Source: Acutalibacteraceae bacterium
Lineage (GTDB): Bacteria > Bacillota > Clostridia > Oscillospirales > Acutalibacteraceae
DNA length: 64,000 nt
Assembly: GCA_045649405.1 (NCBI GenBank)
Contig: JAZRPW010000038.1
Location: 13,442 to 77,441, forward strand
Direction of reading: 5' to 3'
Below are positions 2 to 56,601 of this stretch, in pieces; position 1 is the first letter of the stretch; every line of letters starts with the position of its first letter. The notes below the pieces were generated by a model. The model was given only the letters and a program-made list of their open reading frames with translations, made no database searches and was not told the DNA's origin. A program made the translations under genes and the position numbers.

Positions 2-1186
2 GCAGAAGTAATTGATATGGAAATCGACTTCAAATTAAAAAGCGTTACATACCAACCAAGAAACTATGACTCAGATGGTATTGGTATGTTAGACCTTTAC
101 TTCTCACCATTGTACGTTAACAACGTTCCTGGTTCAAATGGTATTGACCCAATGAACGTAGATGATTTCAAATTGTACGACATTCGTCCTTATATTAATA
201 GCACAACATTCGTTTCAGGCAAACTTGACAAAGATGGCGACGGCGACATTTTCAACGATTGGCAATGGACAACATGGGAAAAAGGTCCAGATGATGACCA
301 CCCACCAATTTATGGTTCAGATGAATACGGCAACAAGGGTGATATCGAAAGAGATAAAGAAACAAGATGCCCAATTATGGCAGACGGTTCTCTTTACAAC
401 CCAATTCCAATTGTTCAACTTGTAAAAGAAGGCGACGTTGTTGTTTCTAATTTGAAAGCAGAAGTTAACGGTTCAAGCGTTAAAGTTTCATGGGAAAACA
501 CTGGTTCTGAAGCAAGTGGTTATGATGTTGACCTTTACAAAGATGGTGAATGGTTAGAATATGCTGAAACAACAGGCACATCTGTTGAATTTACAGATCT
601 TGAAGAAGGTTCTTATGTTGCAACTGTTTATGGTTACAATGTAGAAGGTACAATGGCTCGTGGTAGAGATGTTGCATTTGAAATTGGTGGTAGTGCACCA
701 GTTGAAACAGAACCAACAACAGTTCCTATTCCAACAGCTCCTACAACAAAACCAACAGAAGCTCCAGCTCCTACAACAGCTGCTCCAACTACAGTAGCTC
801 CAACTACAGTAGCTCCAACTACAGCTGCTCCAACTACAGTTGCTCCTACAACAGTAGCTCCAACAACTGCAGCTCCTACTACAGTAGCTCCTACAACACC
901 TGCTAAAGTTGTAAAATTAAAAGTACCTAAATTCAAATTGACTTCAGGTAAAAAACAATTTAAAGTTAAATACACAAAAGTAGCAAATGCTACTGGCTTC
1001 CAAGTAAGATATAAACTTAAAGGTAAATGGATTACAAAAACATTTAAAACCAAAAAGACAGCTACAAAAGCAATCAAAAAGCTCAAAAAAGGTACTTACC
1101 AAGTACAAGTTAGAGCAATGCTTACAAAAGGCAAAACTAAAACATACTCAGCTTGGAGCAAAGCTAAAAAAGTTAAAGTAAAATAA
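2..1186 (+). CDS. Cell-surface protein, 5' end cut by the window edge: Fn3-like domain, Pro/Thr linker, Lys-rich C-terminal Fn3-like module
   Basis: The frame is open from nt 2, with no stop upstream of the Met at 17. Fn3-like pattern SVKVSWENTGSEASGYDVDLYKDG..YVATVYGYN. (APTTV/A)n linker. The last ~90 aa closely match the C-terminus of 40947..42761. Confidence 0.7.
   Translation, partial: AEVIDMEIDFKLKSVTYQPRNYDSDGIGMLDLYFSPLYVNNVPGSNGIDPMNVDDFKLYDIRPYINSTTFVSGKLDKDGDGDIFNDWQWTTWEKGPDDDHPPIYGSDEYGNKGDIERDKETRCPIMADGSLYNPIPIVQLVKEGDVVVSNLKAEVNGSSVKVSWENTGSEASGYDVDLYKDGEWLEYAETTGTSVEFTDLEEGSYVATVYGYNVEGTMARGRDVAFEIGGSAPVETEPTTVPIPTAPTTKPTEAPAPTTAAPTTVAPTTVAPTTAAPTTVAPTTVAPTTAAPTTVAPTTPAKVVKLKVPKFKLTSGKKQFKVKYTKVANATGFQVRYKLKGKWITKTFKTKKTATKAIKKLKKGTYQVQVRAMLTKGKTKTYSAWSKAKKVKVK
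767..901 (+). repeat. Nine tandem 15-nt coding repeats (gct-cca/cct-act/aca-aca-gta/gct) encoding an APTTV/APTTA linker
   Basis: Read directly from the sequence: consecutive in-frame 15-mers from 767 to 901. Confidence 0.9.
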
Positions 1187-1296: not shown

Positions 1297-2865
1297 ATGA
1301 AAAAGATAATTTCAATTTTGCTTGTAGTAGCCATTTTTATTTTTGGTAACTGCATAGTTCAGGCAAGTGAAGATGAGCAATATAACCCAGTTGATTTAGT
1401 GATGGGCGATGTTAACGGAGATGGAGAAGTTAATGTTGCTGATTGTTTAAATTTTAGAGAGACAATGGTCAATAAAAAGAATGCTTATATTTTGTGTGAA
1501 TATGCTGATTTAAATGGAGATTTTGTTTGCAATGTTGCTGACCTTTTGCTTTTGAGAAAACAACTTTGCGGGTTTGATGTGCAGTTTGCAGATTATAATT
1601 TTGGAGAATTTGTTGGAGATGTAACTAATGAACTTCAAGATTTAGGAAAAAACAATTTTGACACCGCAAATACCGATTGGGATGATAGCAACGTTGAAAA
1701 AATTGACGCAAGAAACCCTAATGATATGATTGCCTACAAATCAAAGGTTTATGTAACAGGTGGCAATTATGATACAAACCAAGGCCCTGTTAGAGTTACT
1801 TATTATTCCCGTGAATATAATGAAGGTAAAAATGCAGGCACAATTGATACTGAGCAAATCAATCGTTTTTACAAATTTGATGATGTGGTTTTCACAACTT
1901 CAATTGATGAACGCACTTGGGGTTCTGGTAGCGTTAGTTTTTTGAAAGATTATAGATTGTTTTTCCAAACAAACGCAGGTGTTTTGCAAAAAAACATTCA
2001 CTGTTATGATATGTCGAAATTCGGTGGCACCTACTTTTTTGCCGGCTCTGCTGTTGATTATAATGATAAATATGTTGGATACAGTGGAAGTAAACTTGAA
2101 CTTTCAAAAGGCATTATTTATATGTTTAAGGGTAGCGACATTACAAAATGCACCGCAAATGATTTTGTAGATGTGCCTATTGTAAACAAAAATGGCGATG
2201 TAATTGACTTCGATACTGATATGAATGAGTACACAACTTCAAGCGGAAAAACTTATTATACAACCGCTTATGGAGTGCCAAGGGTTTATGACCTTTTTGA
2301 GTGGGGCGAAGATTTATATGCGCTTTATTATGACCAGTATATGTATGGCAATTATTATCCACAAGAAAAAAATTATAACGGTCTTTATAAGTTTGATGCG
2401 CAAAAACAAGCATTTGTTTTTGAGCCAGATTTAAAAATCGACATCTTTAGAGATAAGTTTGTTGAATCTCAAGATAAAAACAAAATCTTGCACGACTTTG
2501 AGTGGGGTGACAGATACTATTTTGTTACCGATGTTGGTTTGTTAAGCACAAATGATTTTAAAAATTATCAAGAAGAGTATATTGATGAAGTACCATATGC
2601 TATTATAAAAGATGTGATTTTTAGAGACAACAGTGCTTATTTGGTTTGCAGTGAGGTAAACAGTAAAGGCAACTACACAACCTATTTGTACAAAACAACC
2701 GACTTTAGAAATTATTCTAAAATCTTGCAGTTTGACGCTGGCTCATTTGTAAGAAGCTTTGAATATTGCAACGGCGCTTTTTACTTTGGGCTTGGCGCAA
2801 CAAAAGAAGGGAATTACTGCAACACAGAATGTGGCAGAATTTATAGATATATTTATTACAAATAA
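1297..2865 (+). CDS. Secreted dockerin-containing protein with a C-terminal beta-propeller-like domain (distant paralog of the 15133..18855 family)
   Basis: RBS GGAGG upstream. Signal peptide MKKIISILLVVAIFIFGNCIVQA. Two dockerin Ca-binding loops, DVNGDGEVNVAD and DLNGDFVCNVAD. The C-terminal region shares motifs with the tandem paralogs (SKVYVTGGNYD, INRFYKFDD, FEYCNGAFYFG). Confidence 0.8.
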   Translation: MKKIISILLVVAIFIFGNCIVQASEDEQYNPVDLVMGDVNGDGEVNVADCLNFRETMVNKKNAYILCEYADLNGDFVCNVADLLLLRKQLCGFDVQFADYNFGEFVGDVTNELQDLGKNNFDTANTDWDDSNVEKIDARNPNDMIAYKSKVYVTGGNYDTNQGPVRVTYYSREYNEGKNAGTIDTEQINRFYKFDDVVFTTSIDERTWGSGSVSFLKDYRLFFQTNAGVLQKNIHCYDMSKFGGTYFFAGSAVDYNDKYVGYSGSKLELSKGIIYMFKGSDITKCTANDFVDVPIVNKNGDVIDFDTDMNEYTTSSGKTYYTTAYGVPRVYDLFEWGEDLYALYYDQYMYGNYYPQEKNYNGLYKFDAQKQAFVFEPDLKIDIFRDKFVESQDKNKILHDFEWGDRYYFVTDVGLLSTNDFKNYQEEYIDEVPYAIIKDVIFRDNSAYLVCSEVNSKGNYTTYLYKTTDFRNYSKILQFDAGSFVRSFEYCNGAFYFGLGATKEGNYCNTECGRIYRYIYYK

Positions 2866-8257: not shown

Positions 8258-9579
8258 TATTTGTCGCCTCTTTCTCTAACTATAACTTTAACCGGTGTAC
8301 CCTCAAGGCCGAAGGTTTGTCTAATTTGATTTTCTAAATATCTTTGATAAGAAAAATGGAACAACTCTGCATTGTTACAGAAGAAAACAAATGTCGGTGG
8401 GGCAGTGGTTGCTTGAGTCATATAGTAAATTTTCAAGCGTTTACCTCTGTCTGAAGGTGGTTGCACCCTTGCAGTTGCCTCTGCTAACAACTCATTAAGT
8501 CTACCAGTAGAAATACGCATATTATTTTGCTCATAAGCATATTTAATAACTTCCATAAGTCTGTCAAGTCTTTGACCTGTTTTTGCAGAAATGAAAATAA
8601 TTGGCGCATAAGACATAAATGAAAAATCAACTGCCAACTCTTTGCGATATTGGTCCATTGTCTTGCCGTCTTTTTCAACCAAGTCCCATTTGTTAACTGC
8701 AATAACACATGCCTTACCACCGTCAAGTGCAATTGAAGCCACCTTTGAGTCTTGCTCGGTAAAGCCCTCAACTGCATCAATCATAATAACGCAAACATCG
8801 GCACGCTCAACCGCCATTTTTGCACGAATAACAGAGTATTTTTCAATTTTGTCGTCAACACGAGATTTTCTACGAAGTCCTGCTGTGTCAATGAAATTAA
8901 ATTTGCCAAATTCGTTGCTTATAGAAAAGTCAATTGCATCACGAGTAGTACCTGCAATGTCAGAAACAATTGCTCGCTCATCACCTGCGATTTTATTGAT
9001 AAGCGAAGACTTGCCGGCATTTGGTTTGCCAATAATAGCAACATTAATTACATCTTCATCATCTTCTTGTGATTCATCATCAAACACTAGATGCTCAAAA
9101 ACTGCATCAAGCAAGTCGCCAGTGCCATGACCGTGAACAGATGAAACCGCAATTGGCTCACCAAGGCCTAAATTATAAAATTCATAAAACTCTGGCTCAA
9201 CTTCGCCAATGCCGTCACACTTGTTAACGCAAAGTGCAATAGGTTTGCCAGATTTTTGAAGCATTGCTGCAACCTCTTCGTCAGCGGCAGTAATGCCAGA
9301 TTTCATATCAACAACAAAAATAATCGCCTGCGCCATATCAATTGCCAAATTTGCTTGCGCGCGCATTTGTGAAAGAATAATATCATCAGTTTTTGGCTCA
9401 ATACCGCCTGTGTCAATCATAGTAATTGTTTTGCCACGCCATTCACAGTCACCAAAAATTCTATCTCTTGTAACACCTGGTGTGTCATCAACAATTGACA
9501 AGCGTTGACCAATAAGTTTATTAAAAAGTGTAGATTTACCAACATTAGGTCTGCCTACAACTGCAACAATTGGATTCAC
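8257..9579 (-). CDS. der: Ribosome-associated GTPase Der/EngA
   Basis: Two G domains (GRPNVGKSTLFN and GKPNAGKSSLIN) plus a KH-like C-terminus. Start moved to the GTG at 9579, which follows GGAGGAG; the track start at 9639 adds 20 unlikely residues. Confidence 0.92.
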   Translation of the reverse strand: MNPIVAVVGRPNVGKSTLFNKLIGQRLSIVDDTPGVTRDRIFGDCEWRGKTITMIDTGGIEPKTDDIILSQMRAQANLAIDMAQAIIFVVDMKSGITAADEEVAAMLQKSGKPIALCVNKCDGIGEVEPEFYEFYNLGLGEPIAVSSVHGHGTGDLLDAVFEHLVFDDESQEDDEDVINVAIIGKPNAGKSSLINKIAGDERAIVSDIAGTTRDAIDFSISNEFGKFNFIDTAGLRRKSRVDDKIEKYSVIRAKMAVERADVCVIMIDAVEGFTEQDSKVASIALDGGKACVIAVNKWDLVEKDGKTMDQYRKELAVDFSFMSYAPIIFISAKTGQRLDRLMEVIKYAYEQNNMRISTGRLNELLAEATARVQPPSDRGKRLKIYYMTQATTAPPTFVFFCNNAELFHFSYQRYLENQIRQTFGLEGTPVKVIVRERGDK

Positions 9580-9716
9580 TTTTTCTCCTCCTTGGGTTTT
9601 GAAAGGACATAAAAATCCTAGTTTAAAAATTATACACAATTATTATACACCAAATTTATGAATAAGTAAATATTTAAAAGCAAATTTTTTATAATAAATT
9701 AACTAAAAATTCCAAC

Positions 9717-9746
9717 TTGACTAAAACAAACTTCTTGTGTTAAAAT
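9717..9746 (+). promoter_or_regulatory. Sigma-A-type promoter with an extended -10 (TTGACT-18-TAAAAT, TGTG-T upstream of the -10)
   Basis: TTGACT at 9717..9722, TGTGT at 9736..9740, TAAAAT at 9741..9746. It lies upstream of the sigma-factor gene. Confidence 0.55.
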
Positions 9747-9814
9747 TTTTTTAGAAAAAAGTGTCAGAAAATCAATTTTTTGGAGTTATTATTAGTAGAA
9801 GGGGGAGGAAAAGC

Positions 9815-10351
9815 ATGCTATTTTTAATCGATTACACACCACAAATGCAAGAAAAATTTAGAAGAATTTATAATAAATATTTGAATTTAATGTTTTACAT
9901 TGCTTCTGGATTTTTTGACAATCAGCAAGACAAAGAAGATGCGGTTTTTGAAGCATTATATAAAATTGTTTCGCATCTTGAAAACTTAGATGAAGATGAA
10001 AAACGCATCAAAAATTTTATTGCTGTTGTCACAAAAAACACCTGTATCTCAATTAAACAAAAGCAAGACAAAATCAAGCAAGTTTCGTTTGAAAATATTG
10101 CAGAAAGTGAAGTCACTTTTGAAAATATAGAAGAAGATTTTGACAACAAAATTTCTTTGCAAAATTACAAAAAAGCACTTCTAAAACTCCCCCAGAATTA
10201 TTATGAAATCATTTATCTTAAGTTTTTTGAAGAGCTTTCAAATAAAGAGATTTCTAAACTTTTGGGCATTTCAGAACAAACTTGTTATAAACGTCTTTCT
10301 CGTGCACGAAAAATGCTTGAAAAAGTTGTAAAGGAGAATGAAGATGAGTAA
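9815..10351 (+). CDS. Sigma-70 family (ECF-like) RNA polymerase sigma factor
   Basis: Region 2-like segment (DKEDAVFEALYKIVSH..FIAVVTKNTCIS) and region 4 HTH (LSNKEISKLLGISEQTCYKRLSRARKML). ATG at 9815 follows GGGGGAGG. Confidence 0.8.
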   Translation: MLFLIDYTPQMQEKFRRIYNKYLNLMFYIASGFFDNQQDKEDAVFEALYKIVSHLENLDEDEKRIKNFIAVVTKNTCISIKQKQDKIKQVSFENIAESEVTFENIEEDFDNKISLQNYKKALLKLPQNYYEIIYLKFFEELSNKEISKLLGISEQTCYKRLSRARKMLEKVVKENEDE

Positions 10352-11138: not shown

Positions 11139-11162
11139 AAAGTGCAAAAGGAGTGGATTGTT

Positions 11163-11594
11163 TTGAAAAAAAGATTCATTTATTTAGTGATTGTATTTGT
11201 TCTTTTGTTGACTTCTTGCTCTTTTGCACAAGAAAACGGCGTTACATTATCTATTGAAAACAATGTTTTTCCGGTTGGAACAAAAAGCGTTGTGACAAAA
11301 TGGACTAACAATACTAATGATGTAATATCGTTCGGCTTTGGATTCAAATTAGAGCAAAAGGAAAAAGTCGAATGGGTAGAAGTAGAACATTCTAAGGATT
11401 ATATAGTTGAAGATGTTTTAGCAAAGTTGTTACCAAAAGGCGAAACAGAAGCACAATATAACATAACAGCGTATTACGGCAAAGATTTGCCAAAAGGCGA
11501 GTACAGAATAAAAGCAAACTATAGTTTTGATGATGACAAGGAATATGGCGAAAAAGACTATTGTGTTGCTTTTGCAGAATTTGAAATAAAATAA
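11163..11594 (+). CDS. Small lipoprotein of unknown function
   Basis: TTG at 11163 lies 9 nt after AAAGGAG. Lipobox LLLTSC. It is the third gene of the sigma/anti-sigma unit. Confidence 0.55.
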   Translation: MKKRFIYLVIVFVLLLTSCSFAQENGVTLSIENNVFPVGTKSVVTKWTNNTNDVISFGFGFKLEQKEKVEWVEVEHSKDYIVEDVLAKLLPKGETEAQYNITAYYGKDLPKGEYRIKANYSFDDDKEYGEKDYCVAFAEFEIK

Positions 11595-13196: not shown

Positions 13197-15131
13197 ATGG
13201 GCAAGACAATTGCAGAAAAAATATTAGAAGCACATTTAGTATGTGGCGAAATGAAAAAAGGTGAAGACATTGGCATTCGCATTGACCAAACTTTAACACA
13301 AGATGCTACTGGCACAATGGCTTATCTTGAGTTCGAAGCAATGGGTGTAAAACGCGTTAAAACAGAGCGTTCAGTTGCTTACATTGACCACAACACACTT
13401 CAAACTGGTTTTGAAAATATGGATGACCACCGTTTCATTGGCTCAATTGCTAAAAAACACGGCATCTATTTCTCACGCCCTGGTAACGGCATTTGCCACC
13501 AAGTTCATCTTGAGCGTTTTGGCATTCCAGGCAAAACATTAATCGGTTCTGACTCACACACACCAACCGGTGGCGGTATTGGTATGCTCGCTTTCGGTGC
13601 AGGTGGTCTTGACGTTGCCGTTGCAATGGGCGGTGGCGAATATCACATCACAATGCCAAAAATGACAAGAATTAATTTAACTGGCAAACTTTCTCCATAC
13701 GTTTCAGCAAAAGATGTTATCTTGGAAGTTCTTAGAATTATGTCGGTTAAAGGTGGCGTTGGCAAAATTGTTGAATACGGTGGCGAAGGTGTTAAAACTT
13801 TGTCAGTTCCAGAACGTGCAACAATTACAAATATGGGTGCAGAACTTGGCGCTTCGACTTCAGTTTTCCCTGCAGATGAAGTAACTCGTGAATTCTTAAA
13901 AGCACAAGGCAGAGAACAAGACTTCACACCTGTTTTTGCAGATGAAGATGCAGTTTATGATGAAGTAATTGACATTGATTTGTCAACACTTAAAGCAGCT
14001 GCTGCAATGCCTCATATGCCTGACAACGTTAAATCAGTTGAAGAAATCGGTCAAATTAAAGTAGACCAAGTTCTCATTGGTTCTTGCACAAACTCTTCAC
14101 TTCGTGATTTGCTCCGTGTTGCACAAATTTTAAAAGGCAAAACTGTTCATCCTGATGTTTCAGTTGGTATTGCCCCTGGTTCAAAACAAGTTTTCACAAT
14201 GCTCGCTAAATGTGGTGCGCTTGCAGACCTTATTTCTGCAGGTTGCCGTATTTTAGAGTGTACTTGCGGTCCTTGTATCGGTATGGGTCAATCTCCAAAC
14301 TCAAAGGGTATCTCACTTAGAACATTCAACCGTAACTTTGAAGGTCGTTCAGGTACTGCTGATGGTCAAATTTATCTTGTTTCTCCTGAAACAGCAGCAG
14401 CTTCAGCACTCACAGGTGTTTTAACGGACCCAACAACTCTTGGTGGTTATACTGAAATTGAAATGCCTGAAAAATTCCTTATTTGCGATAATTTGATTGT
14501 TCCACCAGCATCAGAGGAGGAAGCAGACAGTGTTGAAATTCTTCGTGGTCCAAACATCAAACCTTTCCCAGTTACAACTGCAATGGAAGACACAATTGCG
14601 GCTAAAACTGTTCTTAAAGTTGAAGATAATATCACAACTGACCATATTATGCCGGCAGGCGCTAAAATCTTGCCTTACCGTTCAAACATTCCTTATCTTT
14701 CACAATTCTGCTTTAAACAATGTGATGAAAACTTTGCAGAAAATTGTAAAGCAGCAGGCAATGGCGTAATTATCGGCGGCGCAAACTATGGTCAAGGTTC
14801 ATCTCGTGAACACGCAGCACTTGTTCCACTTTATCTCGGTATCAAAGCGGTTATCACAAAATCTTTTGCTCGTATTCACGTTGCTAACCTTATCAATGCA
14901 GGTATCATTCCAATGACTTTCGTTAACGAAGCAGATTATGACAAAGTTTCAAAAGATGATGATTTGAGTTTTGACGGCATCGCAACAGCTATTAAAAATG
15001 GCGATGTTACATATACAGTTAAAAATAAAACTCAAGGCACAACATTCGAAGTTAACCTTGACTTCTCAACTCGTCAAAGAGATATGTTGTTAGCAGGCGG
15101 TCTTTTAAACTATACAAAAGAAAATGCTTAA
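13197..15131 (+). CDS. acn: Aconitate hydratase (aconitase family, ~640-aa form)
   Basis: IDQTLTQDATG, GSDSHT, GSCTNS and CGPCIGMGQ motifs (Fe-S cluster Cys ligands) plus a C-terminal swivel domain. Confidence 0.88.
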   Translation: MGKTIAEKILEAHLVCGEMKKGEDIGIRIDQTLTQDATGTMAYLEFEAMGVKRVKTERSVAYIDHNTLQTGFENMDDHRFIGSIAKKHGIYFSRPGNGICHQVHLERFGIPGKTLIGSDSHTPTGGGIGMLAFGAGGLDVAVAMGGGEYHITMPKMTRINLTGKLSPYVSAKDVILEVLRIMSVKGGVGKIVEYGGEGVKTLSVPERATITNMGAELGASTSVFPADEVTREFLKAQGREQDFTPVFADEDAVYDEVIDIDLSTLKAAAAMPHMPDNVKSVEEIGQIKVDQVLIGSCTNSSLRDLLRVAQILKGKTVHPDVSVGIAPGSKQVFTMLAKCGALADLISAGCRILECTCGPCIGMGQSPNSKGISLRTFNRNFEGRSGTADGQIYLVSPETAAASALTGVLTDPTTLGGYTEIEMPEKFLICDNLIVPPASEEEADSVEILRGPNIKPFPVTTAMEDTIAAKTVLKVEDNITTDHIMPAGAKILPYRSNIPYLSQFCFKQCDENFAENCKAAGNGVIIGGANYGQGSSREHAALVPLYLGIKAVITKSFARIHVANLINAGIIPMTFVNEADYDKVSKDDDLSFDGIATAIKNGDVTYTVKNKTQGTTFEVNLDFSTRQRDMLLAGGLLNYTKENA

Positions 15132-15132
15132 A

Positions 15133-16362
15133 ATGAAAATCAATAAAAAAATAATTTTTTCAGTTGTATCGGTTGCTTTGGTGTTAGCAATTGTTTTTGG
15201 TGTAATAGCGTTTTATCCATTTAAACCAAAAGCAAAAGTTGTGTCGCAAAAACAACCGGTCAGCGTTACTTTGCCAAATCCAAGCACTGCCCTGATTGAG
15301 CAATATTCTAATTATATGTTTGCTCGCAACCCTTGGGATATGCAAACATATAACGGTAAAGTTTATATTAGCGCAGGGGATTATGGCGAAAACTCGGGTC
15401 CTACTAAAATCATATGTTATGACCCACAAGACGGCAGTTTTGAAAAGTGTGATAGCATTTATTCAGAACAAATTTCAAGATTTTATGTTTTTGATGATTG
15501 TTTATATACCGTTTCGGTTGACCCTGTTAATTGGGGTGTAGGCGAATTTTACAGAAAAACTAAAGACGATGAATATGACTGGTTTGAATATTTCACAGTT
15601 TTACCATCTTCTGTTCATTGTCTTGATATGGCAGAGTTTGATGACAAGTTGTTTTTCTGTGGACAGGTTCAAGACAATGACAATTACGCAATGATTCAGT
15701 ATATTGAGAAAAGCGATATGCCGGTTGACTATGATGACACAACAAAACACGCCTTTATTTATAAAGACGGCAAAGAAATTACTGATGAGTATCTTCGTGT
15801 TGTGGTTTCTGAGTTGATTGTGTTTAAGGACAATCTTTATGCTTGGCATAACAGTTCAGAGCGAATTGGCGACCCTTACGAAGGGCTTTATGTTTACAAC
15901 AAAGAAGAGTGTCGATTTGATTATATCGAAGGCGAAAAAACATTCGAACCAGTTGTTGAAAAGGGCGACAGTCAGTATGATTATGCGCTTGTTCAAGCAG
16001 ATGTTGAGTATGATGGCAAACTGGTTTTCGCTAACAATGGTCTGTTGTATACAGAAGATTTGAAAAACTACACCGAGTGTAATTTTGGCAAAGGTTATGA
16101 AGATTTTGTGGCTCGTGATTTGTTGGTAATTGAAGACCAACTTTACATTCTTGCAAGTAAACAACTTGAAAATGGCAAATTCAAAACTTGTGTTTTTGTA
16201 ACAGAAGACCTTGAAAAATTTTCTGAAGTTTTGAATTTTGAAGCCAATAGCTATATGATTAGTTTTGAGTATATTGACAAAACATTTATTTTCGGCGAAG
16301 GTGGAGCATATAAAGATATTCCAGAAAGTTGTGGTAATTTATATTCTATAAAGGTGGAATAA
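15133..16362 (+). CDS. Membrane-anchored beta-propeller-like protein, tandem paralog 1 (uncharacterised family)
   Basis: Start chosen at the second ATG (MKINKKIIF) to match the paralog N-termini; the alternative ATG at 15124 overlaps the acn stop. Single N-terminal TM helix. About half the residues match paralog 2, rising to near identity at the C-terminus. Confidence 0.8.
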   Translation: MKINKKIIFSVVSVALVLAIVFGVIAFYPFKPKAKVVSQKQPVSVTLPNPSTALIEQYSNYMFARNPWDMQTYNGKVYISAGDYGENSGPTKIICYDPQDGSFEKCDSIYSEQISRFYVFDDCLYTVSVDPVNWGVGEFYRKTKDDEYDWFEYFTVLPSSVHCLDMAEFDDKLFFCGQVQDNDNYAMIQYIEKSDMPVDYDDTTKHAFIYKDGKEITDEYLRVVVSELIVFKDNLYAWHNSSERIGDPYEGLYVYNKEECRFDYIEGEKTFEPVVEKGDSQYDYALVQADVEYDGKLVFANNGLLYTEDLKNYTECNFGKGYEDFVARDLLVIEDQLYILASKQLENGKFKTCVFVTEDLEKFSEVLNFEANSYMISFEYIDKTFIFGEGGAYKDIPESCGNLYSIKVE

Positions 16363-16365
16363 ATA

Positions 16366-17613
16366 ATGAAAAATACTAAAAAAATTATAATTGCAGCATC
16401 AGTTGTTTTAATTTTGGCGCTTGTTTTTACTGTAATATTGATTAATCCTTTTAAGTTAAAAGCAAAAATTGTGTCAGCTAAACAACCCGTTCAAATAACT
16501 TTACCAAAAGCAGATACTTCGTTGAAAGATTTTTATAATGAAAAAGGCGAAGGCAAGTATAATTTTGCTGCTCAAGCGTGGGATATGATTGAGTTTAAAG
16601 GCAAAGTTTTTCTTAGCGCAGGGGATTATAATAATAATTCGGGGTCTGCTCCGGTTTATTATTACGACCCAAAGGCGAGAAAGTTTGAGTATTGCGATTC
16701 AGTTTATACCGAGCAAGTTTCAGAGTTTGAAATAATTAACGATAAACTTATAACAACAGCAGTTGACCCTGTTTCTTGGGGCGTTGGCGAATATTATGTT
16801 TATAATGAGCAAGATGATAAGTTCGATTATTATTCAACCTTGCCTTCTAATATTCATTGTTATGATGTTGAGTATTTTGATGGTAAATACTTTTTCTCTG
16901 GCTCTGTAGATGATGACGAGAATTATGCAGGCGTTCAATGGATTAAGGAAGAAGATTTTTGTTCAGATGATTTAGATAAAACTCATCAAGCGTTTTTAAT
17001 GGTTGATGGCAAGCGAAATCCTTTGAATTTTCGTATTTATCAGTTATTCGCTTTTAAAGGCGAACTTTTTGCTTGGCATTATGAGGCAATACCAGAACAA
17101 TTTCATGAGCAGTTGGGCATACCAAAGTATTTGGGCTTGTTTAAATATAATAAAGAGAAAAATTATTTTGAAAAGCTGAGTAATGAATATAATCTTGACC
17201 CAATAATTGAAAAAGTTGATCATAAGATTGATTTGGCAAAAATTCAGGCAAAGTTAATTTATGATGAAAAATATGTTTTTGTAAACAATGGTCTTTTGTT
17301 TACAGAAGACTTCAAAAATTATACCGAGTGCAGTTTTGGCGAAGGATATGATGGCTTTATAGCACATGATATGTTTGAGCGTGAAGGTCAACTTTATATT
17401 CTTGCAAGTAAGACCACGAAAAACGGTAAATATAAAACTTGCGTTTTTGTAACAGAAAACCTTGAAAAATTTGCAGAGGTTTTGAATTTTGAAGTTGATA
17501 GTTATATGATAAGCTTTGAATATGTTGATAACACATTTATTTTCTGTGAAGGTGGAGCATATAAAGATATTCCAGAAAGTTGTGGTAATTTATATTCTAT
17601 AAAGGTGGATTAA
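16366..17613 (+). CDS. Membrane-anchored beta-propeller-like protein, tandem paralog 2
   Basis: Starts 3 nt after paralog 1. Most residues are identical to paralog 3. Confidence 0.85.
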   Translation: MKNTKKIIIAASVVLILALVFTVILINPFKLKAKIVSAKQPVQITLPKADTSLKDFYNEKGEGKYNFAAQAWDMIEFKGKVFLSAGDYNNNSGSAPVYYYDPKARKFEYCDSVYTEQVSEFEIINDKLITTAVDPVSWGVGEYYVYNEQDDKFDYYSTLPSNIHCYDVEYFDGKYFFSGSVDDDENYAGVQWIKEEDFCSDDLDKTHQAFLMVDGKRNPLNFRIYQLFAFKGELFAWHYEAIPEQFHEQLGIPKYLGLFKYNKEKNYFEKLSNEYNLDPIIEKVDHKIDLAKIQAKLIYDEKYVFVNNGLLFTEDFKNYTECSFGEGYDGFIAHDMFEREGQLYILASKTTKNGKYKTCVFVTENLEKFAEVLNFEVDSYMISFEYVDNTFIFCEGGAYKDIPESCGNLYSIKVD

Positions 17614-17616
17614 ATA

Positions 17617-18855
17617 ATGAAAAACACTAAAAAAATAATAATTGTAACATCAGTTGTTTTGGTTTTGGCTCTTGTTGTTGGCGTGATTTTGATTAATCCG
17701 TTTAAATTAAAAGCAAAAATTGTGTCAGCTAAACAACCCGTTCAAATAACTTTGCCAAAAGCAGATACTTCGTTGAAAGATTTTTATAATGAAAAAGGCG
17801 AAGGCAAGTATAAATTTGCTGCTCAAGCTTGGGATATGATTGAGTTTAAAGGCAAAGTCTTTCTTAGCGCAGGGGATTATGACATCAATTCAGGTTCTGC
17901 TCCGGTTTATTATTATGACCCAAAGACGCAAAAGTTTGAGTATTGCGATACAGTTTATACCGAGCAGGTTTTAGAATTTGAAAAGCAAGATGATAAACTT
18001 GTAACCGTTTCAATCGACCCTGTTTCTTGGGGTGCAGGCGAGTATTATGTTTATAATGAACAAGATAATATGTTTGATTATTATACAACTTTGCCTTCTA
18101 ATATTCATTGTTATGATATTGAGTATTTTGATGGTAAATACTTCTTTTCAGGCTCTGTAAATGATACTGAAAATTATTCAGGTGTTCAATGGATTAAAGA
18201 AGAAGATTTTTGTTCAGATGATATGGATAAAACTCATCAAGCGTTTTTAATGGTTGATGGTGAGAGAATTCCGAAATTTTTGAATATGCGTGTTTATCAG
18301 TTGTTTGCTTATAAAGGTGAACTTTTTGCTTGGCATTATGCAGTAGTACCAGAAGAATTTCAAAAGTATTTTGGTTTGTTCAAATATAATAAAGAGAAAA
18401 ATTGTTTTGAAAAGCTAAGTGATGAATATAATCTTGACCCTATAATAGAAAAAATTGGTCAAGGTATTGATTATTCGAAAATTCAAGCAAAATTGATTTA
18501 TGATGATAAATATGTTTTTGCAAATAACGGTCTTTTGTTTACAGAAGATTTTAAAAATTACACCGAGTGTAGTTTTGGCGAAGGATATGAGGGATTTATA
18601 GCGCGTGATATATTTGAGCGTGAAGGGCAGCTTTATATTCTTGCAAGTAAGACCACGAAAAACGGTAAATATAAAACTTGTGTTTTTGTAACAGAAAACC
18701 TTGAAAAATTTGCAGAGGTTTTGAATTTTGAAGCCGATAGTTATATGATTAGTTTTGAGCATGTTGATAACACTTTTGTTTTTTGCGAAGGTGGTAAAGA
18801 TTCAGAAGACATCGCAAAAAGTTGCGGAAATTTATATGCTATAAAAGTAGATTAA
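17617..18855 (+). CDS. Membrane-anchored beta-propeller-like protein, tandem paralog 3
   Basis: Starts 3 nt after paralog 2 and has the same architecture. Confidence 0.85.
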   Translation: MKNTKKIIIVTSVVLVLALVVGVILINPFKLKAKIVSAKQPVQITLPKADTSLKDFYNEKGEGKYKFAAQAWDMIEFKGKVFLSAGDYDINSGSAPVYYYDPKTQKFEYCDTVYTEQVLEFEKQDDKLVTVSIDPVSWGAGEYYVYNEQDNMFDYYTTLPSNIHCYDIEYFDGKYFFSGSVNDTENYSGVQWIKEEDFCSDDMDKTHQAFLMVDGERIPKFLNMRVYQLFAYKGELFAWHYAVVPEEFQKYFGLFKYNKEKNCFEKLSDEYNLDPIIEKIGQGIDYSKIQAKLIYDDKYVFANNGLLFTEDFKNYTECSFGEGYEGFIARDIFEREGQLYILASKTTKNGKYKTCVFVTENLEKFAEVLNFEADSYMISFEHVDNTFVFCEGGKDSEDIAKSCGNLYAIKVD

Positions 18856-18872: not shown

Positions 18873-19520
18873 ATGGCAAATTATAAAATTTCAGATTCGG
18901 TAATCAAACGTTTGCCGAGATATTATAGATTTTTAGGCGAGCTTATAAATAACAATGTGCCACGAATTTCTTCTGGCTCGCTTGCAACAAAAATGGGCAT
19001 CACCGCTTCACAAATCAGACAAGATTTAAACTGTTTTGGTGGTTTTGGTCAACAAGGTTATGGTTATAATGTTATTGAGTTGCACAATGAAATTGCCGAG
19101 ATTTTAGGTCTTGATAAAAAGTACAGCGCAATTATCATTGGTGCTGGTAACTTAGGCCGTGCAATTGCAACCCATATGGCTTTTGAAAAACGTGGCTTTA
19201 GTTTGATTGGCGTTTTTGATAAAAAAGAGTCAATTGCAGGGCAACTTATAAAAGGAATGCCTGTGCGCCACATTAGCGGTCTTGATGAGTTTTGCAGAGC
19301 ACACAAACCAACGGTTGCAGTTTTGTGCATTCCGGAAACCGAAACCGAAGACACAGTAAAACAATTGCTTAAATTAGGCGTTCGTGGTTTTTGGAATTTC
19401 TCTCATTACGACTTTAATTTAAAATTCCCAGATGTACCGGTTGAAAACGTGCATTTGAGTGACTCGTTAATGACATTTTGTTACAAAGTAAAAACTCTTG
19501 AGGAAGTAGAAAATCAATAA
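18873..19520 (+). CDS. rex: Redox-sensing transcriptional repressor Rex
   Basis: MANYKISDSVIKRLPRYYRFL winged-helix N-terminus and a GAGNLGRA Rossmann motif. ATG at 18873 follows AAGGAG; the track start at 18822 overlaps paralog 3. Confidence 0.9.
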   Translation: MANYKISDSVIKRLPRYYRFLGELINNNVPRISSGSLATKMGITASQIRQDLNCFGGFGQQGYGYNVIELHNEIAEILGLDKKYSAIIIGAGNLGRAIATHMAFEKRGFSLIGVFDKKESIAGQLIKGMPVRHISGLDEFCRAHKPTVAVLCIPETETEDTVKQLLKLGVRGFWNFSHYDFNLKFPDVPVENVHLSDSLMTFCYKVKTLEEVENQ

Positions 19521-19541: not shown

Positions 19542-20420
19542 ATGAAAAAAATCAAAAAGTGGATTAACAAAGTCTTTGAAATTTTTTCAAAACTTTCAAA
19601 CCTTTTTATCGACAACCACATTTTTGCTTATGCATCGCAGGCATCGTTTTTTGTAATAATATCAGCAGTGCCGTTTGCAATGCTTTTGCTCAACATTTTG
19701 CAAGCGGTAATGACCATTCCGCAACAAACAGTTGAAAATGTTGTCTTGGAATTTTTGCCGGTTCAGGTTCATCAAATTGCTTATAACATAATTGCTGACT
19801 TTTACAGCAACATCAACATTCCTTTTGTGTCGGTTACAACCATCTTTCTCATTTGGACCGCGTCAAGGGGAGTAAACGCAATTTCATCAGGGCTGAAGGT
19901 TGTTTTTAACACAAATGATGACGGCAACTATTTCAAATCTGCCTTTTTCTCACTTGTTTACACCGTTTTGTTTATTGTTGTAATAATAGCAATGGTTGTT
20001 GCAGTGTTTTTCGGTGGGCATTTGGTAGACCTTTTAGCCATCTACATTCCAGGTCTGCACTCGGTTGTAGATGCTGTGTTGCAAGCAAGATATTTAATTT
20101 TGTTAATAGCGTTAACACTATTCTTTATGAGTGCTTACAAACTTTTGGGCAAATCCAAAATCAAGTTTTTAAACCAATTTTCAGGTGCGTTTTTGTCTAG
20201 TTGTTTTTGGCTCATCTTTTCATATTTTTACTCGGTTTACATTCAAAATATGGGAAGAATGTCTTACATCTACGGCTCGCTTGCAGCAATCGTGTTTTTA
20301 ATGCTTTGGCTGTGGTTCTGTATGATAAGTATGCTTTTAGGCGCACAATTTAATAGGTGGATTTTTGAAAAAAACATCACCTTAAAGTCAATTTTCACAG
20401 GAAAGTTGTCAAAAACATAA
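19542..20420 (+). CDS. YihY/BrkB (virulence factor BrkB / 'RNase BN-like') family membrane protein
   Basis: ~290 aa, six TM helices, and the ..ASQASFF..ISAVPF.. / ..YGSLAAIVFLMLWLW.. pattern typical of the family. Confidence 0.7.
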   Translation: MKKIKKWINKVFEIFSKLSNLFIDNHIFAYASQASFFVIISAVPFAMLLLNILQAVMTIPQQTVENVVLEFLPVQVHQIAYNIIADFYSNINIPFVSVTTIFLIWTASRGVNAISSGLKVVFNTNDDGNYFKSAFFSLVYTVLFIVVIIAMVVAVFFGGHLVDLLAIYIPGLHSVVDAVLQARYLILLIALTLFFMSAYKLLGKSKIKFLNQFSGAFLSSCFWLIFSYFYSVYIQNMGRMSYIYGSLAAIVFLMLWLWFCMISMLLGAQFNRWIFEKNITLKSIFTGKLSKT

Positions 20421-20449: not shown

Positions 20450-20478
20450 TTGACATTTTATAAATAATAGGTTATAAT
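20450..20478 (+). promoter_or_regulatory. Perfect consensus sigma-A promoter (TTGACA-17-TATAAT)
   Basis: TTGACA at 20450..20455, a 17-nt spacer, TATAAT at 20473..20478. Confidence 0.8.
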
Positions 20479-21020: not shown

Positions 21021-21053
21021 AAAAAAGCAAGGTGAATTTTCACCTTGCTTTTT
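21021..21053. terminator. Bidirectional rho-independent terminator
   Basis: Hairpin gcaaggtg-aatttt-caccttgc flanked by AAAAAA and TTTTT. It lies between the repeat region (+) and the rpiB end (-). Confidence 0.88.
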
Positions 21054-39071: not shown

Positions 39072-40931
39072 ATGAAAAAATTATTGGCTTTTATGCTTTC
39101 GTTTTTGATGGTTTTTCAACTTTCAATAACTGCATTTGCCTTTAAAGATACAACAAATAATATTTTTACAGGCAAGAAATATACACATGATGACAGATTT
39201 AAAGATTATGAAATTGTTAATGGTTTAGATATTTCTTATTATCAAAAAAACGTTGACTTTGAAAAACTTAAAGCAGCAGGCGTTGACTTTTTGTTTTTGC
39301 GCGCAGGTTTTCGTGGCTATGGTTCAAAAGGAACTTTGAATAAAGACACAACCTTTGACGCTTATGCTAAAGGTGCAATTGAGGCCGGCATTGATGTTGG
39401 TGTGTATTTTTATTCTCAAGCAATTACCGTTAAAGAAGCGCAAGAAGAAGCAGATTACACAATGAGCATTATTAAAGATTACGACATTACAATGCCTGTT
39501 ATGTTTGACTTTGAATATGCAAATGGTGGTAGGCTTGAAAAAGCAAAATTAAGCAACTCTGCCCACACTGAAATTTGTTTGGCATATTGCCAAAGGGTAG
39601 AAAATGAAGGTTATACTTCAGGCGTTTACGCAAACCATTCAATGCTTCTTAACGACCTTAATGATGAGGAAATTGCAAAAGATTATATGATTTGGCTTGC
39701 AAATTACAACACTGCTCCAAAATATAACAGCAAACTTTATGAGCAAGAATATTCTTATTGGCAATACACAAGTTCAGGTAGTGTTGATGGCATTGACGGT
39801 AGAGTTGACTGTAATTTTAGATATTTTAAAGCGCCACAAAAGGTTGTTAATTTGCAGATTGATACTAATGATTATCAACAACCGGTTCTTACTTGGGACA
39901 GAGTAAAAGATTGTTATGGTTATGAAATTTACAAGCTTGATAAAGACACAAAACAATATGTTAAAATTGGCACAAATAAAGGCGCGGCAATTTGTACATA
40001 TACTGATACTGCTGATAAAGGCGAATCAAACTCTTACAAAGTAAAGGCAATTTCAAGAAACAAGGGTGAATTTGTTGGTGGCGAAATGTCAGATGAAGTT
40101 AAATCACAAGGCATTTTCAAAATGACAATGCAGTCAAACGGCACAGGTTATGCAACATTTACTTGGCGAGTAGTACCAGGCGCTAGCGAATATCAAGTTT
40201 TGCGTGCAGATACTGAAAACGGCACATATGATTATGTGGCAACTTTAAATTCAGAAACAACTCATTTTACTGATTACACCGATGACGGATTTAAAACATA
40301 TTTCTATATGGTAAGAGCAGTAATGCGTGATAGCGAAGGTGTTTTAACCGATAATATTTACACTCCTTGCTTGAAAGCAGAAAAACCACAGCCAGTTTTA
40401 GAAAACGTTGCGTTAACAGAAAACAACGCAATTGTGGTTAATTTTACTGCAATGCCTTATGCAACCGGCACAGAAATTTGGGCGGCCTCTGGTACGGCAG
40501 CGTTTAAAAAGGTTGGCACAGTTTTAGGTGATACAAATAGTTACACCCACTCAAAATTAAAACGTGGTGTTAAATATCAATACAAAGTTCGTCAATACAT
40601 AGTTAAAGACGGCAAGACATATTACAGTGAATTTAGTAATGTTGAAGACGAAACAACTTTAAAAACAACCACAATTACTTTGACAACAACCAAAGCGGCT
40701 GCAAAAATTGTTTGTGAAAAGGTAACTGGTGCTAATGGTTATGAAATTTATATGAAGGCACCAACCAGCAAAACATACAAAAAACAAGTTGCAACTAAAA
40801 AACAAAAATACACTAAAAAAGGTTTGAAGTCAGGTAAAACTTACAAGTTCAAAGTTAGAACTTACAGGGTTGTAGATGGCAAAACAATTTACAGTCCATA
40901 TTCAAAGACAAAGAAAATTAAAATTAAGTAA
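39072..40931 (+). CDS. Secreted GH25 muramidase (lysozyme) with Fn3-like repeats and a Lys-rich C-terminal module
   Basis: Signal peptide. GLDISYYQKNVDFEKLKAAGVDFLFLRAG and MFDFEY (DxE) are GH25 motifs. These are followed by several ~90-aa Fn3-like repeats (W..V.GA..Y.V.R). Confidence 0.85.
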   Translation: MKKLLAFMLSFLMVFQLSITAFAFKDTTNNIFTGKKYTHDDRFKDYEIVNGLDISYYQKNVDFEKLKAAGVDFLFLRAGFRGYGSKGTLNKDTTFDAYAKGAIEAGIDVGVYFYSQAITVKEAQEEADYTMSIIKDYDITMPVMFDFEYANGGRLEKAKLSNSAHTEICLAYCQRVENEGYTSGVYANHSMLLNDLNDEEIAKDYMIWLANYNTAPKYNSKLYEQEYSYWQYTSSGSVDGIDGRVDCNFRYFKAPQKVVNLQIDTNDYQQPVLTWDRVKDCYGYEIYKLDKDTKQYVKIGTNKGAAICTYTDTADKGESNSYKVKAISRNKGEFVGGEMSDEVKSQGIFKMTMQSNGTGYATFTWRVVPGASEYQVLRADTENGTYDYVATLNSETTHFTDYTDDGFKTYFYMVRAVMRDSEGVLTDNIYTPCLKAEKPQPVLENVALTENNAIVVNFTAMPYATGTEIWAASGTAAFKKVGTVLGDTNSYTHSKLKRGVKYQYKVRQYIVKDGKTYYSEFSNVEDETTLKTTTITLTTTKAAAKIVCEKVTGANGYEIYMKAPTSKTYKKQVATKKQKYTKKGLKSGKTYKFKVRTYRVVDGKTIYSPYSKTKKIKIK

Positions 40932-40946
40932 AGGATTAATTGAACA

Positions 40947-42761
40947 ATGAGAAAATTTTTAGCAGTTGTGGTTGCAGTTGTAATGATTTTGCAAATCACA
41001 ACATCTGTTTTTGCTTTTGTTGACACAAAAAACGATATTTTTACAGGCAGTAAATATACCCATGATGATAGATTTGCTGGTCGTGAAATTACACATGGTT
41101 TGGACATTTCTTTTTATCAAGGAGATGTTGATTTTGGAAAAATTAAAGCTGCTGGTGTGGATTTTTTGATTTTGCGTGCAGGTAATCGTTACTCACAATC
41201 AGGCAAATTGGATAAAGACTCAATGTTTGATACATATGTTGCAGGAGCAACCGCCGCTGGCATTGATATGGGTGCTTATATTTTTTCTCAAGCAATAACA
41301 GTTAAAGAAGCACAAGAAGAGGCAGATTATCTTTTATCACTTGTTAAGGGTTATGATATGACAATGCCACTTATGTTTGACTTTGAGTATTATTCTGGTG
41401 GTAGATTGTCAAACGCAAATCTGACAAACAGACAACGCACAGACATTTGCTTGGCATTTTGTGAAAGAATAGAAGCAGCAGGTTATACTGCCGGTGTTTA
41501 TGCAAACCATTCAATGTTTAAAAACGACCTTTACGCCGATGAAATTGCTGAAAAATATATTCTTTGGCTTGCACAATACCATACAAAGCCAGAGCTTGGT
41601 GGAACATTCTTCCAACCTGATTATGAATATTGGCAGTATTCAAGTTCGGGTGGGGTTAATGGTATTGCCGGTAGAGTTGACTGTAACTTTAGATATTTCA
41701 AAGCTCCAGACAAAATTACCAATTTAAAACTCACAACCAACACATCAAAACAACCAGTTCTCACTTGGGACAAGAATAAAAATTGTTATGGTTATGAGAT
41801 TTATAAATTTGATGTTAACACACAAGATTATGAGTTCTATGCAACGAATAAAGGTGCAGGAAGTTGTACATTTACAGATACAAGCACAGAACAAAGTTCT
41901 TACAAAGTAAGAGCAATTTCAAGAAATAAAGGTAGATTTGTTGAAGGCGAATTTTCAGATGAAGTAGGCGAAGCACCTTCTTTTAAAGCGACTATTTTAT
42001 CAACCGGCGCAGACTATGTAACACTTAAATGGACACAAGTACCTAATGCTGCAAAATACAGCATTTTACGTACCGACGTTGAAAATGGTGCATACACTTC
42101 GGTTGGTATGGTAGATGCTGACACAACAGTATTCACTGACAAACTTGAAAATGAAACAAAAACTTATTACTATGTAATCAAGGCAATAATTTGTAATGTA
42201 TTAGGCGATGAAATTGAATATTTGTTTACTGAAAAATTAACACTTGAAAAGGTAAAGGTTGATTTGCCAGAAACTACAACTCAACCTACCACAACTCAAC
42301 CTACCACAACTCAACCAACTACAACAACCCAACCAACTACAACAACTCAACCAACTGAATGCAAACACTCTTCAATTGAAATTGTTGGCAAAAAAGCAGA
42401 AACTTATTTTGAAGATGGTTACACTGGTGATAAGGTTTGTGGTTTGTGTAAATTTGAATTTGTAAAAGGCGAAAAAATTGAAAGATTGAAATTAAAAGTG
42501 CCAAACTTTAAACTTGTCAGCGGAAAAAAACAATTCAAAATTAAATACACAAAGGTTTCAGGCGCTATTGGATTCCAAGTTAGGTATAAAGTTAAAGGTA
42601 AATGGATTACCAAAAACTACACCACAAAGAAAACAGTAACAAAGACTATCAAAAAACTTAAAAAAGGTAATTATAAAGTTCAAATCAGAGCTTTTGTTAA
42701 ATCTGGCACAAAAACTGTTTATTCTTCTTGGTCAAAAACAAAATCTGTAAAGGTTAAATAA
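40947..42761 (+). CDS. Secreted GH25 muramidase paralog with a TTQP linker, a Cys-containing segment and a Lys-rich C-terminal module
   Basis: Same GH25 motifs (GLDISFYQGDVDF.., MFDFEY). (TTQP)n linker. The C-terminal 90 aa closely match the C-terminus of 2..1186. Confidence 0.85.
   Translation: MRKFLAVVVAVVMILQITTSVFAFVDTKNDIFTGSKYTHDDRFAGREITHGLDISFYQGDVDFGKIKAAGVDFLILRAGNRYSQSGKLDKDSMFDTYVAGATAAGIDMGAYIFSQAITVKEAQEEADYLLSLVKGYDMTMPLMFDFEYYSGGRLSNANLTNRQRTDICLAFCERIEAAGYTAGVYANHSMFKNDLYADEIAEKYILWLAQYHTKPELGGTFFQPDYEYWQYSSSGGVNGIAGRVDCNFRYFKAPDKITNLKLTTNTSKQPVLTWDKNKNCYGYEIYKFDVNTQDYEFYATNKGAGSCTFTDTSTEQSSYKVRAISRNKGRFVEGEFSDEVGEAPSFKATILSTGADYVTLKWTQVPNAAKYSILRTDVENGAYTSVGMVDADTTVFTDKLENETKTYYYVIKAIICNVLGDEIEYLFTEKLTLEKVKVDLPETTTQPTTTQPTTTQPTTTTQPTTTTQPTECKHSSIEIVGKKAETYFEDGYTGDKVCGLCKFEFVKGEKIERLKLKVPNFKLVSGKKQFKIKYTKVSGAIGFQVRYKVKGKWITKNYTTKKTVTKTIKKLKKGNYKVQIRAFVKSGTKTVYSSWSKTKSVKVK
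42273..42356 (+). repeat. Tandem 12/15-nt coding repeats encoding the (T)TTQP linker
   Basis: act aca act caa cct-type units repeated five to six times. Confidence 0.85.
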
Positions 42762-56461: not shown

Positions 56462-56601
56462 AAGCCAGTGCGAAAAACTGTGCATTATAACTAAAATATA
56501 ATTATAAAGCCAAATTTCGACTGAAAATTTGTTCTTGTTGTATGATGAGTTGCGGGGTTTGTTATAGAGAAAACTCGAAAAAAGCAAAAGGAGATTTAGT
56601 G

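Follow-up and report, generated by a model that had tools for sequence, protein, structure and literature searches.

The described systems closest to the one analyzed here are built on beta-propellers. Kelch proteins such as Keap1, the KLHL proteins and NS1-BP are cytosolic adaptors whose propellers usually have six four-stranded blades, and the seven-bladed propellers of beta-TrCP (WD40) and LGI1 (EPTP) are eukaryotic protein-binding modules. The ulvan lyases of polysaccharide lyase (PL) families PL24 and PL25 are secreted, carbohydrate-active and seven-bladed, and they use a His/Tyr/Arg set on the top face, i.e. the side of the propeller where the D-A loops, the B-C loops and the starts of the A strands surround the central channel. 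The sialic-acid mutarotase NanM/YjhT is a bacterial, extracytoplasmic Kelch propeller of six blades whose substrate is a soluble sugar close to the membrane. Finally, Kelch-like modules have been named among the structural domains of dockerin proteins from Acetivibrio cellulolyticus (PMC3413522). Here, we analyze three tandem genes (copies 1, 2 and 3, or c1, c2 and c3) in a stretch of 64,000 nucleotides from the genome of an Acutalibacteraceae bacterium, a member of the Clostridia from gut or rumen (GenBank assembly GCA_045649405.1, contig JAZRPW010000038.1, positions 13,442 to 77,441; hereafter the window), which encode anchored members of a large family of predicted propellers remotely related to Kelch repeats.

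A first-pass annotation of the window, made without database searches, had described three consecutive genes for proteins of about 410 residues separated by 3-nt spacers, each with a Lys-rich N-terminus, one transmembrane helix and a propeller-like ectodomain. The open reading frames (ORFs) bear this out: they are intact, lie on the + strand between 15133 and 18855 with spacers of 3 nt (Table 1), and their products combine a Lys-rich start, one hydrophobic helix of ~20 residues and an all-beta ectodomain in which the recurring motifs quoted at that time are indeed found. An AlphaFold2 model of copy 2, built from a 22-sequence alignment, reached a mean predicted local distance difference test score (pLDDT) of 90.8 and a predicted template-modeling score (pTM) of 0.87. 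It opens with a helix (residues 2-26), followed by a short linker with one strand and by seven groups of four strands, which DSSP places at residues 74-113, 122-160, 162-213, 226-270, 295-321, 332-377 and 381-413 (copy 2 numbering, the residue reference for all conserved positions hereafter), the last blade being completed by the N-terminal strand. The lipoprotein-type relative P0198, only 22% identical to copy 2, gave an independent model of the same quality (pLDDT 90.0, pTM 0.87) with the same seven-blade layout and N-terminal closure. In both predictions, the suspected propeller is thus resolved into seven four-stranded blades behind an N-terminal anchor.

Comparison of these models with known structures by Foldseek yielded 494 (copy 2) and 440 (P0198) propeller matches in the PDB at E≤1e-3. 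For copy 2, the best ones were Fbw7, Kelch domains, the LGI1 EPTP propeller and BT4673, with template-modeling scores (TM-scores) of 0.4-0.55 and ~10% identity; for P0198, they were beta-TrCP (0.55-0.58), LGI1 EPTP (0.52-0.58) and PL25 ulvan lyase (0.41-0.47). Searches with both models against the PDB and with one against BFVD returned generic or unnamed propellers only and no annotated close neighbor.

The first-pass annotation could not assign the ectodomain to a named family. This still holds at the level of significant matches, since Pfam, NCBIfam and PADLOC gave none; the best Pfam and NCBIfam hits of the three copies were to Kelch_1 and Kelch_6 at 13-15 bits and, more exactly, the Kelch models scored 12.8-14.8 bits against cut-offs of 20.1-25.3 (E=0.025-0.085), below every gathering threshold. 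It no longer holds for blades 1-3, which link remotely to Kelch repeats. Weak matches to Pfam Kelch models occur in 16-27 members of a 76-member alignment (mean column identity 21%), Kelch_6 being hit in 27/76 with a best E-value of 2.9e-5, and the profile of this alignment retrieved from the PDB Kelch chains only, among them the designed protein SAKe (5e-12), NS1-BP (5e-6), KBTBD10 (4e-5) and Keap1 (7e-4). The signal is confined to profile positions 27-189, which correspond to these three blades; neither a profile of only four sequences nor one of the C-terminal half found anything in the PDB. We therefore consider the family as remotely related to Kelch repeats, with no well-characterized family claiming the domain. 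As both models are propellers, neither of the outcomes that the first-pass annotation had named as refuting it has occurred. A sialidase-like BNR/Asp-box propeller was rejected: the repeated S-x-D-x-G-x-T-W hairpins between strands C and D were not found, and Pfam BNR matched neither the window proteins nor any of the 76 members. Of 141 relatives, 72 have a single strict Asp-box S-x-D-x-G-x-x-[FWY], located in blade 3. In the window copies, this box has degenerated and an insertion is found at its place, and blades 5 and 6 keep only T-x-D...[FY] remnants.

The family is large and not private to this lineage. A word-indexed search recovered only 20 relatives, and an exhaustive profile search detected 1350 representative clusters (50% identity) at E≤1e-3, 807 at E≤1e-10 and 180 at E≤1e-30, the weak end of this list possibly including generic Kelch proteins. 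Among the best 150 proteins plus the first 20, 140 domain hits span the whole profile. In the sources, functional names do not go beyond "hypothetical protein", the label "SpoIIIAC/AD" on one cluster being an artefact that belongs to a 50-aa fragment, and a literature search for a described family found nothing relevant. Within the window, a family hidden Markov model run over all ORFs of at least 100 aa picked up exactly four members, namely copies 1-3 and the distant fourth paralog that had been proposed at 1297-2865; the latter aligns with copy 2 by BLASTP with 28% identity over 388 aa (E=7e-34).

The family has a group of nearly invariant polar residues. Counted over 141 representative domains that are only ~22% identical, the conserved positions are D73 (89%), G86 (100%), N91 (97%), E116 (93%), D134 (98%), H164 (99%), D167 (95%), R223 (91%), D315 (81%), D335 (95%) and S383 (87%). 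All of them are kept in the four window paralogs, the Arg of copy 1 being offset by a 2-residue indel. DSSP places D73, E116 and R223 in D-A connections, N91 and D134 in B-C loops, and H164, D167, D335 and S383 at the beginning of inner A strands; D315 falls in a C-D hairpin. From strand order and canonical topology, which is how spatial clustering was assessed, the nine polar residues conserved at 87-99% (D73, N91, E116, D134, H164, D167, R223, D335 and S383) would come together on the top face in one pocket at the mouth of the central channel. As the residue types differ from blade to blade, this pocket would be one asymmetric site rather than a set of repeated lectin-type sites, and a multivalent lectin was ruled out on the same ground. 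A copper radical oxidase of the galactose-oxidase type was also discarded: only one His is conserved across the family, and the adjacent Cys is conserved only in a close subfamily.

How the module is held at the cell surface differs among members. Copies 1-3 have no lipobox ([LVI][ASTVI][GAS]C) and no Cys in their N-terminal 40 residues. As no small-x-small cleavage site is present close behind the helix, an uncleaved signal-anchor probably holds them on the outer face of the membrane. In the models of copy 2 and P0198, the first propeller strand begins ~15 residues past the membrane anchor, and the domain would therefore sit at the membrane surface. Among 175 relatives, 48 have lipobox-like N-termini and 118 have other hydrophobic N-termini. 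Lipoboxes are present in the distant P0198 (V-A-C) and also in syntenic orthologs of the copies, P0018 to P0020 (L-S-[GA]-C). P0019 and P0020 are the genes of loci L002-L005 and L010, and they bear a lipoprotein signal where the window has a transmembrane anchor. Judging from these N-termini, the anchoring mode has switched within one syntenic gene lineage, that of the slot between aconitase and rex genes discussed below.

Among domain fusions, the commonest extra domain is Dockerin_1, found in 15 of 37 mid-length relatives; longer relatives also add SLH, ChW, choline-binding repeats, Big_2, Big_7 and fn3, further fusions involve SH3_3, a type IX secretion system (T9SS) sorting domain (Por_Secre_tail) and Cu_amine_oxidN1, and GH113, Laminin_G_3 and LRR were each seen in a single case. 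Given the lipoboxes, dockerins, SLH, ChW and choline-binding repeats of these relatives, the propeller module is consistently extracytoplasmic, be it at the membrane, on the wall or on the cellulosome, which supports the extracellular location initially proposed for the ectodomain. In the window, a type I dockerin is present only in the fourth paralog (Pfam Dockerin_1, E=9.2e-8, 32.6 bits against a cut-off of 22.9 bits), a feature that the first-pass annotation had overlooked; copies 1-3 have none. No cohesin was among the Pfam matches from scans that took in only part of the ORFs of the window. In the ORF at 17-1186 (+), just upstream of this paralog and possibly truncated on its 5' side by the edge of the window, an fn3 domain is accompanied by a long Pro/Thr-rich repeat (APTTVAPTT...) and by a C-terminal region of Lys-rich repeats; its product resembles a surface or wall-associated protein.

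As the fourth copy is equipped for insertion into a cellulosome, the ligand or substrate of the family is probably an extracellular carbohydrate. The reading that we tentatively favor is that of a surface-held module with a single pocket, which binds and probably processes a carbohydrate-type ligand with a specificity proper to each paralog. Copies 1-3, anchored at the outer face of the membrane, would display their propeller extracellularly, and the dockerin of the fourth paralog would deliver its own to a cohesin scaffold. The polar pocket at the channel mouth would bind the ligand, possibly together with a metal ion, and would probably process it chemically; the conserved core would hold this chemistry constant, and the variable top-face loops would give the paralogs differing specificities. 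Indeed, 37 of the 135 positions in top loops differ between copies 2 and 3, versus 25 of 217 elsewhere (Fisher p=2.7e-4). A bolder proposal, which we regard as rather improbable, is that of an undescribed family of carbohydrate-active enzymes (CAZymes): a seven-bladed, Kelch-derived propeller that would act as hydrolase or lyase through D/E/H/R active-site residues around the mouth of the channel, on cellulosomes in its dockerin forms and at the membrane in its anchored forms, with tandem paralogs of distinct specificities.

Several observations speak against a carbohydrate-directed role. No catalytic or carbohydrate-binding family matches the propeller; among the families of glycoside hydrolases (GH) or PLs that have a Pfam or NCBIfam model, none was hit by the window proteins nor, for Pfam, by the 76 members. 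D87 and N91 sit in the Kelch 'GG-x-D-G' loop and H164, D167 and D335 lie inside inner strands; some conserved residues, such as D87, N91 and the His and Asp that are buried, may have a structural and not a functional role. The excess of changes in top loops falls to p=0.047 when top and bottom loops alone are compared, and loops usually vary more than strands. The short tether would keep copies 1-3 at the membrane below the wall, a position ill-suited to contact with insoluble plant fiber. Besides, the gene neighborhoods of distant family members are mutually unrelated, with no conserved CAZyme or transporter partner, and therefore tell nothing about the function of the family at large. Finally, no Foldseek TM-score exceeds 0.58, and the best ones are to protein-binding WD40, Kelch and EPTP propellers. 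This last point feeds a doubtful alternative in which the propeller is a non-catalytic platform for protein interactions that docks or organizes, at the surface of the membrane, another envelope protein or, for the dockerin paralog, acts as such within the cellulosome. Its nearest relatives in both sequence and fold are precisely protein-binding propellers of the Kelch, WD40 and LGI1-EPTP types, no enzyme signature is found, and the tether puts copies 1-3 beside membrane proteins. However, interfaces normally co-vary with their partner, whereas the acidic/His/Arg set is 87-99% conserved over ~22%-identical relatives with many anchors and hosts, and no partner gene is conserved beside distant members.

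As had been noticed, copies 2 and 3 are mostly identical (85% in protein, 88% in DNA) and copy 1 matches them at about half of its positions (56% protein identity to copy 2, 54% to copy 3). The near-identity of copy 1 reported over its last ~110 residues is more restricted: it holds for the last 55 codons (90% DNA identity with copy 2) and not for residues 301-360 (74%), compared with 58% over residues 62-300. In the three-copy loci L001 and L006, the a and b copies are less alike in this 3' tract (70% versus 59% upstream in L001, 76% versus 57% in L006), and copy 1 dips against its own ortholog L006_a, to 79%, within the same tract; gene conversion between copies 1 and 2 is therefore probable at this place. 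Each downstream start is preceded by a Shine-Dalgarno-like AAGGTGGA located within the 3' end of the gene before. An in-frame ATG at 15124 would offer copy 1 an alternative start, resulting in a protein of 412 aa.

The array lies between an aconitase gene and genes for a Rex-type repressor and a BrkB/YihY-family protein. The aconitase gene ends with a TAA at 15129-15131, copy 1 starts 1 nt later, and the successive gaps from aconitase through brkB are 1, 3, 3, 17 and 21 nt. Since these gaps are short and no strong terminator-like hairpin occurs before 21022-21053 (14-bp stem), the six genes (aconitase, c1, c2, c3, rex and brkB) are presumably co-transcribed, with aconitase likely first. The only perfect sigma-70 consensus (TTGACA-17-TATAAT) is found after brkB, at 20450-20478. 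This promoter and the terminator bracket a short region; at this place, a gene of 73-79 aa to which no family is assigned is conserved in related loci. Autoregulation by Rex through the canonical box TTGTTAA-N4-TTAACAA was rejected: the 23 matches in the window compare with 26.8 expected by chance, and none is upstream of aconitase.

The closest genome records are metagenome-assembled genomes (MAGs) of Acutalibacteraceae, L006 being 89% identical for copy 2; more distant relatives come from Ruminococcaceae and Clostridia MAGs from rumen and gut. The first-pass annotation had read the expansion of the family inside a housekeeping region as an adaptive signature, and this interpretation did not survive the comparison. 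Related genomes of Acutalibacteraceae and Ruminococcaceae share the order aconitase-propeller(s)-rex-brkB, with three copies in the slot (window, L001 and L006), two (L002 to L005, L010 and L011) or one (L007, L008 and L017/L018, the last pair, ~30% identical, coming from two metagenome samples of which one is of Hadza human gut). In a neighbor-joining tree, sequences group by position: copy 1 with L006_a and the single copy of L007, copy 2 with L006_b and L001_b, and copy 3 with L006_c and L001_c. As the tree pairs copies in this way, at least three species separated only after the triplication. The tree also indicates that the two-copy lineage duplicated separately, and suggests that L007 lost copies 2 and 3. 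In L007, ~540 bp (9228-9766) separate the propeller gene from rex, where the window has these two copies. In a distant lineage (L019, 5851-9122; also L020 and L021), two adjacent family members of 660 and 374 aa stand beside an MntP gene, so tandem duplication has recurred independently.

Such a conserved slot lends weight to another explanation, in which the propeller is a housekeeping enzyme or chaperone for the cell's own envelope, acting on peptidoglycan, a teichoic-type polymer or an S-layer glycan. This would explain why one copy behaves as a core gene, at least one being present in the slot of every related genome seen, and it fits with the membrane-proximal tether or lipobox and with the fusion of relatives to SLH, ChW, choline-binding repeats and SH3_3, which are typical of autolysins. 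We nevertheless consider it unlikely: the commonest fusion, with a dockerin, locates the module elsewhere than on the wall, a GH113 mannanase is the fusion partner in one relative, and the locus holds no cell-wall synthesis genes.

Across loci, the propellers are far more divergent than their neighbors, with 26-89% protein identity compared with 93-97% for aconitase, 74-93% for Rex and 46-78% for BrkB. Nei-Gojobori ratios of nonsynonymous to synonymous substitution (dN/dS) are 0.14-0.33 for propeller orthologs and paralogs (0.17 for the pair c2/c3), 0.12-0.13 for brkB, 0.045 for aconitase and 0.03-0.05 for rex. The propellers, on these estimates, evolve fast yet under purifying selection, which speaks for all copies being functional. 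Their divergence, the copy number of 1 to 3 and the concentration of recent differences in exposed loops are what a fast-evolving surface antigen or phage-receptor decoy under diversifying selection would display. This last hypothesis appears very unlikely, since the whole-gene dN/dS is similar to that of BrkB, the triplication is old with stable orthology, and a protein on so short a tether would be covered by the wall. Neither are there links to defense or mobile elements: PADLOC anti-phage defense models gave no match with the four proteins at E≤0.01, and tblastn against annotated plasmids and phages found none. As to aconitase, its synonymous divergence (dS) is only ~0.7 versus the largely saturated values of ~1.5-2.8 for rex and brkB, and, together with its high identity across loci, this points to a constraint of unusual strength, to a bias in codon use or to an exchange of the gene in recent times.

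Table 1. Propeller genes of the window and their conserved neighbors (positions in the window)
Feature	Position	Strand	Description
Fourth paralog	1297-2865	+	522 aa; signal peptide, type I dockerin (residues 37-90, ~1405-1566), then propeller
Aconitase gene	13197-15131	+	Pfam Aconitase E=1e-109; conserved upstream neighbor
Copy 1	15133-16362	+	ORF, 409 aa; N-terminal signal-anchor (predicted), then seven-bladed Kelch-like propeller
Homogenized 3' tract of copy 1	16195-16359	+	Pairs with copy 2 3' end 17446-17610; 90% nucleotide identity
Copy 2	16366-17613	+	ORF, 415 aa; transmembrane helix residues 2-26 (16369-16443); propeller ~62-415 (16549-17610)
Copy 3	17617-18855	+	ORF, 412 aa; recent paralog of copy 2
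Rex-type redox-sensing repressor gene	18873-19520	+	Pfam Put_DNA-bind_N and CoA_binding; 17 nt past copy 3
BrkB/YihY-family membrane protein gene	19542-20420	+	Pfam Virul_fac_BrkB E=6.5e-43; last of syntenic block

Elsewhere in the window, a second tandem pair at 39072-40931 and 40947-42761 (+) encodes two proteins (619 and 604 aa) that both have a GH25 lysozyme-type domain at the N-terminus. Their long C-terminal regions gave no significant family match, a sub-threshold GH85_C being seen in the first only. A gene for a sigma factor of the extracytoplasmic function (ECF) type at 9761-10351 (+) overlaps an ORF of 266 aa without Pfam match, possibly an anti-sigma factor, and this pair is followed by a Big_14 immunoglobulin-like protein at 11142-11594 (+). 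Finally, the 1028-aa protein encoded at 56542-59628 (+) has a solute-binding-protein domain restricted to residues 634-932, its N-terminal 630 residues showing no family match; downstream come two ORFs of ~300 aa and a 736-aa Yip1-domain protein.

At least several hundred clusters from gut, rumen and other anaerobe metagenomes belong to this family, which lacks any Pfam or NCBIfam model, solved structure or functional name, and the module recurs as a dockerin-borne part of cellulosomes. If its pocket proves catalytic or glycan-binding, it would represent a new module class for fiber- or mucin-degrading machineries and would annotate thousands of "hypothetical" proteins; if it is only a scaffold, we would be dealing with a routine domain of unknown function and a routine tandem duplication. 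Family size, the invariant polar set and the recurrent dockerin fusion make it a reasonable target for CAZyme discovery.

Set against the described systems, the family shares with Kelch proteins (Kelch_1 to Kelch_6; Keap1, KLHL, NS1-BP and the designed SAKe) the four-stranded blades and, in blade 1, the pattern 'G-K-x-Y-x-x-G-D-Y-x-x-N-x-G ... Y-D-x-x-x-x-x-[FW]'. It differs from them by having seven blades instead of the usual six, a sequence signal in blades 1-3 only, TM-scores of only 0.4-0.57, and an extracytoplasmic, anchored location as opposed to that of cytosolic adaptors. With beta-TrCP and LGI1 EPTP, it has in common the seven blades and its best TM-scores (0.52-0.58), whereas 7-10% identity, no relationship at the sequence level and the eukaryotic protein-binding nature of these modules set it apart. 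PL24/PL25 ulvan lyases resemble it in blade number, secretion and, on the reading favored here, activity on carbohydrates; next to the His/Tyr/Arg set of these enzymes, the family conserves H164, R223 and Y225, which we take as a lead and not as membership. There is no sequence similarity, and the P0198 match to PL25 ulvan lyase 5uam (E=1.2e-7) has TM-scores of only 0.47/0.41 with a root-mean-square deviation of 7.6. Cellulosomal dockerin-borne modules offer a parallel in architecture, Dockerin_1 followed by a propeller being found in the fourth paralog and in the dockerin-bearing relatives, but not in tandem copies 1-3. Finally, NanM/YjhT, which is matched by no window protein through NCBIfam or Pfam and is not among the Foldseek top matches, provides a functional analogy for the tethered copies, as a bacterial Kelch propeller that handles a sugar in the immediate vicinity of the membrane.

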